Below are positions 40,713 to 61,026 of a stretch of DNA of 64,000 bases, in pieces. The first letter of the stretch is position 1; each line of letters opens with the position of its first letter. The notes under the pieces were generated by a model. That model was not told where the DNA came from and searched no databases. It saw only the letters and a list, made by a program, of their open reading frames with translations. The position numbers were made by a program, and so were the translations under genes. The DNA comes from Escherichia coli (GTDB taxonomy: Bacteria; Pseudomonadota; Gammaproteobacteria; Enterobacterales; Enterobacteriaceae): the NCBI RefSeq assembly GCF_041248615.1, contig NZ_CP158426.1; one strand, 5' to 3'.

Positions 40713-41374
40713 GCTCCTACATCAAAACCACTGATGAATTCGTTATCCATATCAAAACCAAAAAATTTTGAGCCTTCCGATGGGGTTTCCACCGAAGGTG
40801 TTTCAATGCCACCCGCCCATACCCCGGCAGCTTTTACTGTGAGATACCCCTGTTTAATTGCCGCAATTAACTCACGCGATACATCTGAAATATCAGTATC
40901 AGGAAAGACCCAGACCGATATCGTCATGTCCTGGTTATCGACTATCTGCATTCGCAGTCCGGATCCTACTGTCGCCGCGTCAAGAATTGCTGGAAGCGAA
41001 TCATTCCGTCCGTCCCAGTTATTAATCGCAATCTTCGCTTTAAGGATGACACGATAAGTTTCATCGCTGAGGTACATGTATCCGGAATCAGGATCGTATG
41101 GCCCCTGCCATACACCCTGATCATATCCAAGCCCGTCGGTATCCCAGCTGAAATAGACACCTGAGATAGGCTGGCTGACAACACGGCTACGTCCGATCCA
41201 CAATCCAAGAATGTCAAGTTGCACACCAACCGCAGAGTCAATATCAAATGCAGTAATCAGCCCTCTGGTGGCAGCCGCAACATCAATAAGCGGCCGGGTC
41301 ATCAGATCAACATGTGCAAGAAATTTAGGTTTGGTGGCGTGGTAGTTCGTGATCAGTTCGGTGTATTTGCTCAT
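40694..41374 (-). CDS. baseplate/tail protein (Mu gp48 / P2 gpI-like)
   Basis: 226 aa; position between baseplate J and tail fibre. Confidence 0.65.
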   Translation of the reverse strand: MSKYTELITNYHATKPKFLAHVDLMTRPLIDVAAATRGLITAFDIDSAVGVQLDILGLWIGRSRVVSQPISGVYFSWDTDGLGYDQGVWQGPYDPDSGYMYLSDETYRVILKAKIAINNWDGRNDSLPAILDAATVGSGLRMQIVDNQDMTISVWVFPDTDISDVSRELIAAIKQGYLTVKAAGVWAGGIETPSVETPSEGSKFFGFDMDNEFISGFDVGAWGVLL

Positions 41375-57537: not shown

Positions 57538-59159
57538 CAGGCCTGTCTCCCTAGCAGCTCCCAGATGTTCAGGGCTGAATTCATTGGGGCATAGTTGATC
57601 ATCACCGAGTCGGCAAGGTTTGGCGATCGGGTTCCATCAGGCTGTTTATCAATAACGATTTTTCCCACACCATTAATGGAATAGGTCGGCTGCGAAAGCT
57701 CGATGATGAGTTTATCTTTGAGTGCCATGCTACTGCTGATTGAGATGATTTCGTCCGGGTTGTAAGCCATACCTTCAACCACGGCGCGCCAGGTATTCTG
57801 AAAAAGTTTACGTAACCGCCACCAGCTCTGGGCTTTGGCGTTAGCGAAGAAGTCCTTGTTCAGACGTGCGGCTTGCCCGTTGTCCCCGCGAACAGCTTCA
57901 TCATCTGGATCAAATACCGCGCCACTACCTCGAAACGGTGTGGCGAGTATTGACGGTCGACGCGCAACGTTACGCAGTTCGTTGATAGCGCGTGCATCGC
58001 CGCGAACGCCAGCGCCCAGCCCGTCCTCGTCAAAGCGAAACTCTTCGAGGTTGTCCTGTTCGCAAAAACCGAAAACCTTCTCGACGGACTGATAAATGTC
58101 ACTGCCCACACCGGACCATTCCCGCACATTTTCCAGGAGGAAGCCATGACGGGTGGAAAATGCATTTTTGTCCCTGCCTTCGTCGGCGACATCCATCGCG
58201 CCAAGTCGTTTGCCTGTTGGCTGGATACCCAGTTTGATATGTGCATCAACGGCAGCCTGTACCCATTCGGATGGAATCAGGACGCCTTCCGCTGATGCGC
58301 TGTAGTTCAGATCAAGTTCCTGTGCCACCACCACCGGATTATCGATTTTCTCGCATTCCCTGCGATACCACTCTTCATCCTTGCGAGGATCATCCCGCCA
58401 GTGGAATGTGAATACCGGTATCTTCCCGCCATGACGCTTCTGAGCGAACGGGTTCGCCATGCCGTTAACTGAACTCAGGTCAATACGGCAACGCGTCGTT
58501 TGTGACAACGCCGCATCAATCAGCAGAGGACGCTGAAGGAATGCAGCCTCATCAACCAGATAAAGCGTGGTACGGTCACCACGACCAATATTATCGCCAG
58601 CCTCGCCTTTGATAACGGCACCAGTTTCAGGAAACTCAACACGCATATATGGCGCGTGCTTCTTCTCGCTCCACGAACCGCGAAACTCTACAGGTAGTGT
58701 TTCCACGAACTTGCGCGCCTTCCAGAACAATGCTTTCGGGTCACCGGTGCTGTCGACGTATTCCTCTTTACGGGAGCCGAAACCGATAACCATTTCTTTG
58801 TTGAAGAGACAAAGCGAGCAGGCCAGTCCGATCGCGGTCCAACTGAGCCCCATTTCACGGGATTTTTCGGTAATACCATTCTCCCTATTGCCCCAGCGTT
58901 CCATAATCCAGTGGATCCACTCCTCCTGCTTAGGGAAGAGTAAAAACGGAATGGTCACCGGCAGGCCATAATCAATATTACGCGGGTCCGTTGTCATGCC
59001 CCAGTCGATGATGAACTGAGCCGGGTTGGTTCGGTAAAACTGTTTTAGTGCTGGCAATATTTCAGGGTTCTGGCGAATGCGCTGTAAGCGTTCCATCCGC
59101 CATTCAAAAACCATCTGGTAATCAGGATTTTTAAAATCGAAGGGGAATGGTAACGGCAT
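57537..59159 (-). CDS. terminase large subunit
   Basis: 540 aa; ATPase plus nuclease-size protein following small terminase. Confidence 0.8.
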
Positions 59160-59161
59160 AC

Positions 59162-59728
59162 TTAGCCCATCATTTTTCTATACGCCTCTGCAGCCTGCTC
59201 CGGCGTTAAGTTGGTAATTTCTGTTCTGACTGGTCCTCCATCAGCGCCAGTCACTTCATTTTTGACGTTGTCTTTAAACGCCTGAACAGAAACATGACGC
59301 CCAAGCAACTCAAGGTTTTTAACCTTATCAGGCCATTTGATTTTCTTCAGAAGTGCGGCGCTATCTGCGGATACCATCTCCATGACATCCATTCCTGATA
59401 GCGTTGTGCGCCATACCTTAGGCCAGTCTTTAATGGGTTTTAGATCACCGTTTTGCAGGAGAATGTCGAGCACATCCATCTGGTCGATTTCAATAAGGCG
59501 ATTAAGTACATATTCTGCATTAATACCAACAAGATCATTGCGTTGCGCTTTCAGTTCAGCGATTCTGAATTGTATGTCAGGTTTTGACAGGTTTTCGGAT
59601 GCGGTACGGTTAGCTGTCTTTGCGCTGTACCCCGCCCGAATAGCCGCTTGCGTGGCGTTTAAATCGATGAGGTACTCGCGACAGAACATTTCTTGCTTGT
59701 CGGTGAGTGCCATTACTTTTCCTAACAC
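59162..59728 (-). CDS. terminase small subunit
   Basis: 188 aa; N-terminal [15 protein letters not shown].. typical of terminase small subunits. Confidence 0.8.
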
Positions 59729-59743
59729 TGAGGTAATTTATTC

Positions 59744-59932
59744 TTGGACAGTTACTACATAACTATCAATGCAATACAAATCATGCTTGCGAAGAGCAAT
59801 GGTTTTTACTTGATCGCCTGGTCTAATCAAAACCGCACAGCAAGCTCGAAAGAAGAGCTTGCTCGTATTTTGGCGTCAGAATTTAGTATCACTAATCTCG
59901 AAGCTACCAACTACGTTGCCGATCTGAACTAA
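59744..59932 (+). CDS. small hypothetical protein (only plus-strand ORF in this part of the prophage)
   Basis: 62 aa ATG ORF in otherwise non-coding gap; no recognisable features. Confidence 0.3.
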   Translation: MDSYYITINAIQIMLAKSNGFYLIAWSNQNRTASSKEELARILASEFSITNLEATNYVADLN

Positions 59933-60157
59933 CTTTTTTGCGGCCATCAAATCGGAACTGCTGTAGTTGATGGCCAATCATTCCTGCTAGCTAATTCGTT
60001 ACTCTGTTGTTTATTCTGCAGGTTTTTCTGTCTACTCTGCAGGTATCTTCAACGACTCATTCCAAATGGTCAGGTGGTTATTGTGCGCTGAGATGCGCGT
60101 TGAAATTCAGATGTGAAAAGGCCCCGCTAAAAGCGAGGCCATAAATCACTTGATATC

Positions 60158-60583
60158 TTACTGAGAACGCTGGAGTAATCCGCGCTGAGCGAGAACTAGA
60201 ACAATGTCATAAGACCCTTGCCTGTCTTTATAGCAAGTTTTATCAACTAACTCAGCTTTGCTAATTCCGGGTAAATCAAGAATCAGATTCGCAACTTCAA
60301 TTGCCCTTTGGTACAACTTACCGATCTTTTTCTCCCCATGATGTGGTTTTACATTCTTCAGATAACCGCTATCCGCCAGAGCGAGAAACGTTGCCCTTGG
60401 GCATCCCTTCTTTCTTGCCGATTCGCTTTCTGTAACCTCAGCGACAGCAGCATCCCATGCATCACGCGGGGATATTGAATTATCAGCAACCAAATAATAA
60501 GCAATTAAAGCGGCGCGCGCGTATTGAGACATAATGCATCCATATACAAAAATCTTATGATAAGACTTTTCTAATATGAACAC
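60158..60583 (-). CDS. hypothetical phage protein downstream of lysis cassette
   Basis: 141 aa ORF (probable start MSQYARAAL near 60532); soluble; no recognised motifs. Confidence 0.5.
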
Positions 60584-61026
60584 TGTGATCTCACATACTC
60601 TTGCAGGCCATTCAATTGGTTAGTTATGGTTTCGATGCGCTCTCTGAGAACGAAATAATCCCGTTGAGCGGTGTCAGTAAGTCTGGGGCTGGCGCCATCA
60701 TCCACGCCGGAGGCGGCGGTGGTTTTATGCATGTCCGGACAGACTGCTTTGACGCGCAGCCACTTACGACCAGCAGAAACATCAGCACGAATACTTTCGA
60801 TAGTCGCGTTAGCATCAGCAAGCTCCTTTGTGTATCTGGCGTCGAGTTCTGCTACATCACGTTGACGCTTCTGCATGTCAGCGATGATGTACGTGGCTTT
60901 ATCGCGCTGTTCTTTATAGGTAATGGCGTTATCACGGTAATGATTAACAGCCCATGACAGACAGACGATGATGCAGATAACCAGAGCGGAGATAATCGCG
61001 GTTAACCTGCTCATTGCTGCCCCCAC
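60571..61026 (-). CDS. rz: i-spanin Rz
   Basis: 151 aa; N-terminal TM anchor, coiled-coil periplasmic domain; follows endolysin. Confidence 0.85.
60624..60821 (-). CDS. rz1: o-spanin Rz1 (lipoprotein embedded in +1 frame of Rz)
   Basis: 65 aa; lipobox VVSGC; proline-rich [16 protein letters not shown] matching lambda Rz1. Confidence 0.85.

Follow-up and report, generated by a model that had tools for sequence, protein, structure and literature searches.

A probable two-part accessory region, including an antisense gene slot beside the small-terminase gene, between the lysis and packaging genes of a lambdoid Escherichia coli prophage

We analysed the interval between the lysis cassette and the terminase genes of a lambdoid prophage of Escherichia coli (contig NZ_CP158426.1), which occupies positions 59,744 to 60,583 of a stretch of 64,000 nucleotides (nt), hereafter the window. 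With a probability of roughly 75%, this interval is a two-part accessory ('moron') region, composed of a gene of the DUF6979 family and of a gene of 62 amino acids (aa), here called ORF62 (ORF, open reading frame), which lies antisense to the late operon in a hypervariable slot; the gap between the two genes is probably not a packaging site. The initial annotation, made from the sequence alone, had proposed both ORFs as candidate accessory functions. This view was upheld: both genes are conserved yet dispensable, the DUF6979 gene being absent from two relatives (L004 and L005) and both genes from phage vB_EcoM-606R2 (606R2), and neither protein matched a phage structural or packaging function (the only Pfam match was DUF6979). 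What the initial annotation had missed is that ORF62 is in the slot that holds pid in phage P22, directly upstream of a particular type of small-terminase gene (terS). The main features are the following:

59162-59713, minus strand: terS, a Terminase_2 small-terminase gene (PF03592, 6.7e-40; RefSeq start)
59538-59566, plus strand: position homologous to the pid promoter (-35 TTGCGT, 17 nt, -10 GATTCT at 59561-59566)
59626-59715: leader of about 87 nt, corresponding to the reverse complement of terS codons 1-29; constant left arm of the slot
59671-59711, plus strand: predicted leader hairpin, formed by the RNA that would also contain ORF62
59744-59932, plus strand: ORF62, 62 aa, isoelectric point (pI) 4.66, start codon TTG, Shine-Dalgarno sequence GAGG at 59730-59733
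59942-59975, plus strand: stem-loop, GGCCATCAA-N16-TTGATGGCC, 10 nt past the ORF62 stop codon
59933-60041: non-coding remnant with weak traces of late-strand sequence
60042-60148: shared post-lysis terminator element and mosaic junction
60116-60140, minus strand: terminator-like hairpin, GGCCTCGCT-TTT-AGCGGGGCC then TTTT, just downstream of the DUF6979 gene
60158-60532, minus strand: DUF6979 gene, 124 aa, 375 base pairs (bp) in RefSeq ('DUF6979 family protein')

The plus-strand ORF of 62 aa, reported as running opposite to the late operon and beside terS, was confirmed at 59744-59932, with all genes from holin through portal on the minus strand. Fifteen clusters of ORF62 homologues, with 63-100% identity and 17 invariant residues, were found in E. 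coli, Klebsiella, Cronobacter, and metagenomes. The first codon, TTG in the window, is ATG in divergent homologues, in which the internal Met14 is replaced by Ile or Leu; because of this ATG start, we consider the full 62 aa to be the gene and the 49-aa RefSeq call made in one genome to be too short. The GAGG Shine-Dalgarno sequence and the start position were also conserved. Pairwise nonsynonymous differences (pN) ranged from 0.06 to 0.26, versus 0.47 to 0.87 for synonymous differences (pS), corresponding to a dN/dS ratio of about 0.08-0.18 with synonymous change near saturation. Judged by this substitution pattern, ORF62 is a genuine gene under protein-level selection, far beyond chance. The AlphaFold2 model, with a predicted local distance difference test score (pLDDT) of 94.5, consisted of four strands followed by two helices and used all 62 aa, including the N-terminal strand. 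The stem-loop located after the stop codon, with a stem of 9-12 bp, was present in all seven ORF62 loci examined, with substitutions that preserve pairing, and was more stable on the plus strand in five of them.

The remote-homology search that had been suggested for both proteins yielded a known family for one of them, DUF6979, and none for ORF62. ORF62 had no match in Pfam, PHROGs, NCBIfam, or PADLOC, no informative fold neighbour, and no tblastn hit among 50,697 GenBank phage records, and a HMMER profile search against 1.84 billion representatives returned only two true clusters. Giant tandem-repeat proteins (P0032-P0045), characterized by a W-S-N-G/Q-x-T-T-E-D/E-L motif present in up to 13 repeats per protein, also matched the ORF62 profile, with E-values down to 1e-13; these hits were judged to be chance motif matches, because the score was summed over many repeats and the predicted secondary structure was different. 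Similarly, ORF62 bore no resemblance by eye to gp69 of phage 4A7 or to the divergent ORFs of phages phiES15 and ES2. The acidic character of the protein would suit protein binding better than DNA binding. A plus-strand ORF of 141 aa (59337-59762) runs antisense across the 5' half of terS and ends 18 nt into ORF62, and in some relatives (P0003, P0004) gene callers join it in frame with ORF62. It was rejected as an overlapping gene, its synonymous constraint being limited to its last ~29 codons, and is probably an open antisense frame of a conserved gene.

ORF62 was located 22-31 bp from a Terminase_2 terS, facing away from it, in every readable left flank except that of locus L009, where terS is truncated. 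This pairing spans at least three types of TerL and portal, while the right-hand neighbours vary, and the N-terminal 30 residues of terS were invariant across the ORF62 loci. In most phages with the window type of terS, among the matches listed (a scope that holds for all the counts of slot loci and cargos given here), ORF62 was replaced by other genes. A scan of IMG/VR with a 29-nt core of the leader retrieved at least 120 contigs, 109 of which had enough flanking sequence. An antisense ORF of at least 60 aa was found within 60 nt of the terS start in 94.5% of these 109 contigs, versus 23.5% of control antisense windows inside terS and TerL. The 113 slot ORFs that were extracted fell into 41 unrelated clusters; they included DUF2158 proteins (16 loci), several Pid-like proteins, ORF62 (4 loci), a lipoprotein, membrane proteins, and an EcsC protein. 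Among the cargos of defence type, we found a TIR/ThsB-like protein (2.5e-44) and matches to the PADLOC models PDC-S66 (1.6e-109) and PDC-S29/S30. Many cargos had no annotation, and ten long ones had no PADLOC match. Divergent slot genes were independently annotated by RefSeq in E2348/69 and MMC-J-0105, and phages phiES15 and ES2 carry still other occupants. Based on this comparison of loci, ORF62 is one cargo of a hypervariable antisense slot, and pid of P22 is another. No common right-hand anchor of the slot was found; a late-strand M-x-K-P-D-W-E-A-I-E (MxKPDWEAIE) sequence was considered for this role and rejected, as it occurred in only 10 of 114 loci.

The constant part of the slot is the leader, which was present in 201 of the 5426 complete E. 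coli genomes (3.7%), with matches that stop at about 59713, at the ATG of terS. In codons 1-29 of terS, pN was 0 and pS ranged from 0 to 0.38, versus a pS of 0.38-0.78 in codons 30-90 and of 0.55-1.0 beyond (two near-identical pairs aside), i.e., a three- to four-fold reduction of synonymous change. This pattern marks 59626-59715 as an island of about 87 nt that appears to be constrained at the nucleotide level. The leader was retained where terS is truncated (L009) or decayed (the relic of P22 and BTP1). In the Logan contig L009 (4883-5189), terS is cut at the left edge of the leader, the left side carries host genes (a ccm operon and a formate/nitrite transporter), and the leader and an intact ORF62 homologue (63% identity) are kept, followed by 187 bp up to the contig end. 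Moreover, terS itself is mosaic: the genes of 606R2 (L006 2926-3498) and of the window share an identical C-terminal part of ~55 aa and differ in their N-terminal halves. The 606R2 type of terS has no leader, no slot, and no ORF62, so that leader and slot accompany the window-type N-terminus only. The hairpin predicted at 59671-59711 had a folding energy of -18.0 to -22.6 kcal/mol on the plus strand versus -12.6 to -14.5 kcal/mol on the minus strand (six variants), the plus strand being favoured by 4-10 kcal/mol. A CG-to-AT change in P22 leaves its structure intact; variation in the leader was too low for a covariation test. A strong promoter within the 87-nt leader was looked for by eye and by promoter scan, and none was found.

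The same leader precedes pid. This experimentally characterized ORFan is transcribed against the late operon (PMC3573128, PMC8835761) from a transcription start site (TSS) at position 40880 of NC_002371.2, with a 5' untranslated region (5'UTR) of 174 nt, in which the region from +110 to +162 determines a second pid RNA species (PMC8835761). At the site of pid, related phages were described as having another insert or none at all (Cenens et al. 2013, PMC3573128). Window positions 59632-59712 aligned with positions 40825-40745 of P22 (NC_002371.2) over ~81 nt, with 95.1% identity; according to the published TSS, the P22 copy corresponds to +55 to +135 of the 174-nt 5'UTR, directly upstream of pid. 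In both P22 and BTP1, the pid promoter and 5'UTR were found to lie inside a decayed Terminase_2 terS relic (BTP1, L001 455-722; P22, about 40745-40998), which showed 54-60% identity to the window terS by tblastn and exhibited stops, frameshifts, and a deleted start ATG. The possibility that ORF62 belongs to the Pid family was rejected, as no sequence similarity was detected: BLASTP of ORF62 against the 86-aa Pid of BTP1 and P22 gave no alignment even at E <= 100.

ORF62 and pid are thus alike in position: both are small, run against the late operon in the interval that separates lysis from packaging genes, are located directly downstream of the ~81-nt leader, and have a hairpin after the stop codon. 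In addition, the site is polymorphic among related phages in both cases, and Pid-like proteins also occupy the slot beside intact Terminase_2 terS genes. The two loci differ in that the adjoining Terminase_2 terS is a decayed relic in P22, whereas it is a working gene in the window, and in that the ORF62 hairpin is not followed by the U-tract of a Rho-independent terminator. The pid gene is on record as being expressed in carrier-state cells and as derepressing a host operon (dgo); ORF62 has no such record. The published -10 element of pid, AATCCT (181-186 nt upstream of pid, with the TSS 174 nt upstream), aligned with GATTCT in the window; by analogy, the TSS of ORF62 would be near 59573, giving a 5'UTR of 171 nt.

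The second component of the region was initially described as a soluble ORF of 141 aa without recognizable motifs. The ORF itself was found (60158-60583, minus strand, 141 aa from a GTG), but it starts 17 codons too early, and the absence of motifs did not hold. Residues 18-138 matched the whole PF22399 (DUF6979) profile (positions 1-127 of 127; 1.5e-29; 103.1 bits versus a cutoff of 27 bits), and phrog_5039 was matched at 2.5e-67; the protein in the window is therefore a full-length member of this family. The gene was set at 124 aa because the PF22399 match begins at residue 18, full-length aligned homologues start at the equivalent Met, and RefSeq gives 375 bp. The protein is basic (pI 9.1), and its AlphaFold2 model (pLDDT 87.9) was all-helical, with seven helices and weak helix-turn-helix-like fold matches. 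No related sequence was found among solved structures (the best hit, MGMT, had an E-value of 0.08), PADLOC gave no match, no transmembrane or signal segment was seen on reading the sequence, and a full-text literature search for the term 'DUF6979' found no paper.

This gene is oriented like Rz, from which 38 bp separate it, and precedes the terminator, an arrangement that recurs in Salmonella prophages and in lambda-4A7-type phages. Its 3' end, together with the terminator, was matched in 439 of 5426 E. coli genomes. The DUF6979 gene is absent from L004 and L005, two relatives that share terS with the window and closely resemble it in holin, lysozyme, and Rz; there, the terminator directly follows Rz. 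A homologue with 49% identity was found alone in a non-phage island of Kluyvera, beside an integrase and an autotransporter. From this distribution, the gene is, by all appearances, a dispensable cargo gene, present or absent between relatives. It is probably read with the late transcript: since it lies upstream of a terminator that directly follows Rz in relatives, it would belong to the Q-dependent late transcript. In phage 4A7 (L002 3-591), the DUF6979 gene and the terminator are followed by small ORFs on the opposite strand, gp69 and gp70, and then by the genome end; these two ORFs look unrelated to ORF62.

The gap between the two genes (59933-60157) had been described as a stretch of about 220 bp without ORFs, and this was accurate: it measures 225 bp and contains only ORFs of 33 and 45 aa, for which no homologues turned up. 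The suggestion that this interval holds a cos or pac site, as in lambdoid phages, was not supported. Nothing resembling either site was found in 59933-60157, where the only repeats are two direct repeats of 16 nt (60008-60023 and 60029-60044, the second of which extends 3 nt beyond the remnant at 59933-60041), and the gap is not conserved with the terminase. In 606R2, which has a TerL with 99.4% identity, only 61 bp separate Rz from terS and the gap is missing, so that we see no reason to place either site in it; moreover, the right part of the gap is common to phages with unrelated terminases.

This right part (60042-60148) exhibited 75-90% identity to the post-Rz sequence of ES18, HK620, Ss-VASD, Stx, and lambda-4A7-type phages, and the ES18 homologue, located after Rz, is annotated 'terminator'. 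Within it, the hairpin at 60116-60140 forms a G+C-rich stem of 9 bp followed by UUUU on the late strand (-21.1 kcal/mol, z = -3.4); a consensus terminator scan missed it because the tail consists of only 4 T. The element is also a mosaic junction, in that similarity to relatives lacking DUF6979 reaches 60146, and that ~430 genomes with DUF6979 but another downstream region are similar from 60079-60089 on. The left part (59933-60041) was found only in the six closest E. coli prophages. At this position, relatives have late-strand ORFs, namely a short MxKPDWEAIES ORF and a protein of 65-72 aa. According to our reading of the alignment, the PDWEAIE frame is interrupted by stops in the window, and the direct-repeat region aligned weakly (E = 0.009) with the C-terminal tail of the 72-aa protein of L019. 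The short MxKPDWEAIE ORF recurs to the right of the slot in L010, L012, L014, L016, and 10 IMG/VR loci (window 59940-59990); it looks like the N-terminus of another type of small terminase and is a candidate scar of an earlier exchange of packaging modules. Taken together, we do not think that the gap is a cos or pac site, and we read it as the late terminator plus weak traces of late-strand sequence.

Under the two-part accessory reading, the DUF6979 gene would form the end of the lysis cassette and be read within the Q-dependent late transcript, and ORF62 would occupy a slot that opens a few tens of bases from the terS start, with the ~87-nt leader as its constant left arm. By analogy with pid, ORF62 would be transcribed from a weak promoter buried in terS, with a long 5'UTR antisense to the terS start, and its transcript may be ended at, or stabilized by, the hairpin past the stop codon. 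Production of the protein would fall in periods of little late transcription, for example in a lysogen, in the carrier state, or early in infection, and the protein would most likely bind a host protein or a protein of a competing phage. Several points weigh against this reading. The expression of ORF62 and of the DUF6979 gene is something that we infer. The promoter scan reported no plus-strand promoter upstream of ORF62, the hexamers resembling the pid promoter are weak (3 of 6 positions each), and the final T of the -10 element is absent in 23 of 108 related sequences; as the hexamers lie within the terS coding sequence, their conservation may merely reflect coding constraint. The hairpin after ORF62 has no U-tract, only 2-3 of 36 cargo representatives match defence models, and the conservation of the leader could reflect a pac site, control of terS translation, or frequent recombination. 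A further step, which we regard as tentative and as having rather less than an even chance, is that the leader serves as a shared docking and expression platform, acting as an anchor for recombination and, with its strand-specific hairpin, as a common 5' leader. Enterobacterial phages with several different packaging modules would thereby exchange and express more than 40 unrelated antisense cargos, pid, ORF62, and the DUF2158 and TIR proteins included, with expression possibly coupled to terS through the antisense overlap at its start. If true, this would explain why the pid promoter and 5'UTR are located in a dead terminase gene, and would amount to a defence and accessory hotspot of which we found no description in the searchable literature.

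The N-terminal part of this small-terminase family is generally a DNA-binding domain, and in SPP1, whose small terminase is of the same family, pac spans a promoter region and the 5' end of gene 1. One alternative is that the pac site of the terminase corresponds to the conserved DNA at the start of terS, perhaps together with the ORF62 region, which would make ORF62 an incidental frame in constrained DNA. Coding needs alone do not account for the conservation of the leader, which accompanies the invariant N-terminal segment of terS, and 606R2, with its different terS N-terminus, has neither leader nor slot. However, ORF62 is under protein-level selection, and a pS of 0.47-0.87 shows that conservation does not extend to its DNA as such; unrelated sequence fills the slot in other phages with a matching terS 5' end; and the leader persists in spite of a truncated terS in L009 and a decayed one in P22, which is packaged by a different terminase. 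A pac site could thus explain the leader at most, and not ORF62 or the gap, and we consider this explanation unlikely. The leader is also central to the idea, which appears improbable to a similar degree, that the antisense RNA matters and not the protein: RNA starting inside terS would repress terS translation or trigger cleavage by RNase III in lysogens, the cargos simply riding along. The start codons of terS and of the cargos are only ~10-50 nt apart, so that any plus-strand transcript overlaps the terS ribosome-binding site; the leader is common to all cargos, with a predicted hairpin whose plus-strand form is favoured by 4-10 kcal/mol; and the 5'UTR region of pid that sets its second RNA species (+110 to +162) overlaps the hairpin at 59671-59711 (PMC8835761). 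Nevertheless, ORF62 and several cargo families are constrained at the protein level or carry Pfam or PADLOC domains, which argues that the proteins matter too. As for the DUF6979 protein, its gene follows Rz at a distance of 38 bp in E. coli, Salmonella, and lambda-4A7-type phages, where it shares the strand of Rz and precedes the terminator, and this position, together with the basic pI of 9.1 and the weak helix-turn-helix-like fold matches, would suit an auxiliary lysis factor or a late-regulation factor belonging to the lysis cassette instead of a free-standing accessory gene. We hold this to be quite unlikely in view of relatives with closely similar holin, lysozyme, and Rz but without DUF6979, of the 49%-identical member alone in the non-phage island of Kluyvera, and of the lack of a transmembrane or signal segment in the protein.

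The two-part accessory reading is placed in a window that contains a lambdoid prophage with its late operon on the minus strand, in the order Q, tRNA-Thr/tRNA-Asn, holin, lysozyme, Rz/Rz1, the interval, Terminase_2 terS, a TerL of 540 aa, and a DUF1073 portal. The neighbouring genes are the following:

60571-61026, minus strand: Rz spanin (PF03245, 6.5e-40), which closes the lysis cassette and is the upstream neighbour of the DUF6979 gene
60624-60821: Rz1, embedded within Rz
61842-61997, minus strand: tRNA-Thr(TGT) and tRNA-Asn(GTT), between Q and the holin gene
62089-62577: Q

The exact arrangement seen in the window was found in 4 of the 5426 complete E. coli genomes. G+C content was below that of the window as a whole (50.8%) in both ORF62 (40.7%) and the DUF6979 gene (45.1%). 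A Rfam scan of 59000-62200 (E <= 1) returned the two tRNAs, one chance miRNA match, and nothing else. The tRNA-Thr(TGT)/tRNA-Asn(GTT) pair was also found in BTP1 and in related E. coli prophages. In a Cronobacter prophage with an ORF62 homologue, a HicA/HicB toxin-antitoxin pair was located upstream of the lysis genes (L010/L011 7613-8247); it is another accessory insertion in the late region.

In the classic picture, a moron includes its own independent promoter-terminator pair. Both genes of the interval resemble lambdoid morons (the Hendrix/Juhala concept, with lambda bor and HK97 gp15 as examples) in being present or absent between collinear phages, in not being needed for virion production by relatives, and in their lower G+C content. 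They differ from classic morons in that the scan found no convincing promoter for either gene, and in that the DUF6979 gene is not a self-contained unit: it lies upstream of the late terminator, which is shared. Its position after Rz is that of bor in lambda-type genomes. However, the idea of a bor-like moron put forward in the initial annotation did not stand up, as neither protein is Bor-like: DUF6979 was the sole Pfam match, and neither N-terminus has the hydrophobic signal and lipobox of a lipoprotein. The slot can further be compared with the hotspots of variable anti-phage genes in P2-like phages and P4-like satellites (Rousset et al. 2022, PMC9122126). In both cases, a fixed position beside a conserved core gene holds many unrelated, mostly unannotated genes, and a few of those in the slot match known or candidate defence proteins (TIR/ThsB-like, PDC-S66, and PDC-S29). 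The slot differs in belonging to another phage group and another position, in that only its left flank is constant, and in that its cargo invariably runs against the late operon and directly adjoins a stretch of coding sequence that does not vary in its nucleotides.

Taken alone, the interval is ordinary prophage cargo, i.e., one gene of a DUF family and one tiny orphan gene, and it becomes useful through its context. An unannotated gene of 62 aa is now linked to pid, which belongs to the small number of experimentally studied antisense genes in late regions, and the comparison suggests that pid is one instance of a general slot and not an oddity of P22. We found nothing in the searchable literature that describes this hotspot, ties it to the 5' end of one specific type of terS, traces the pid leader back to a dead terminase gene, or reports how wide a range of cargo is involved. 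The near-frozen synonymous sites in the first 29 codons of terS call for an explanation of their own, for which a leader RNA, a pac site, and a recombination anchor are the candidates. The slot is easy to locate, because it directly precedes a recognizable terS 5' sequence, which occurs in 3.7% of complete E. coli genomes and at least 120 viral contigs. With its dozens of uncharacterized small proteins, a few of which carry defence signatures, it provides a compact list of candidate factors for phage-host and phage-phage interactions.

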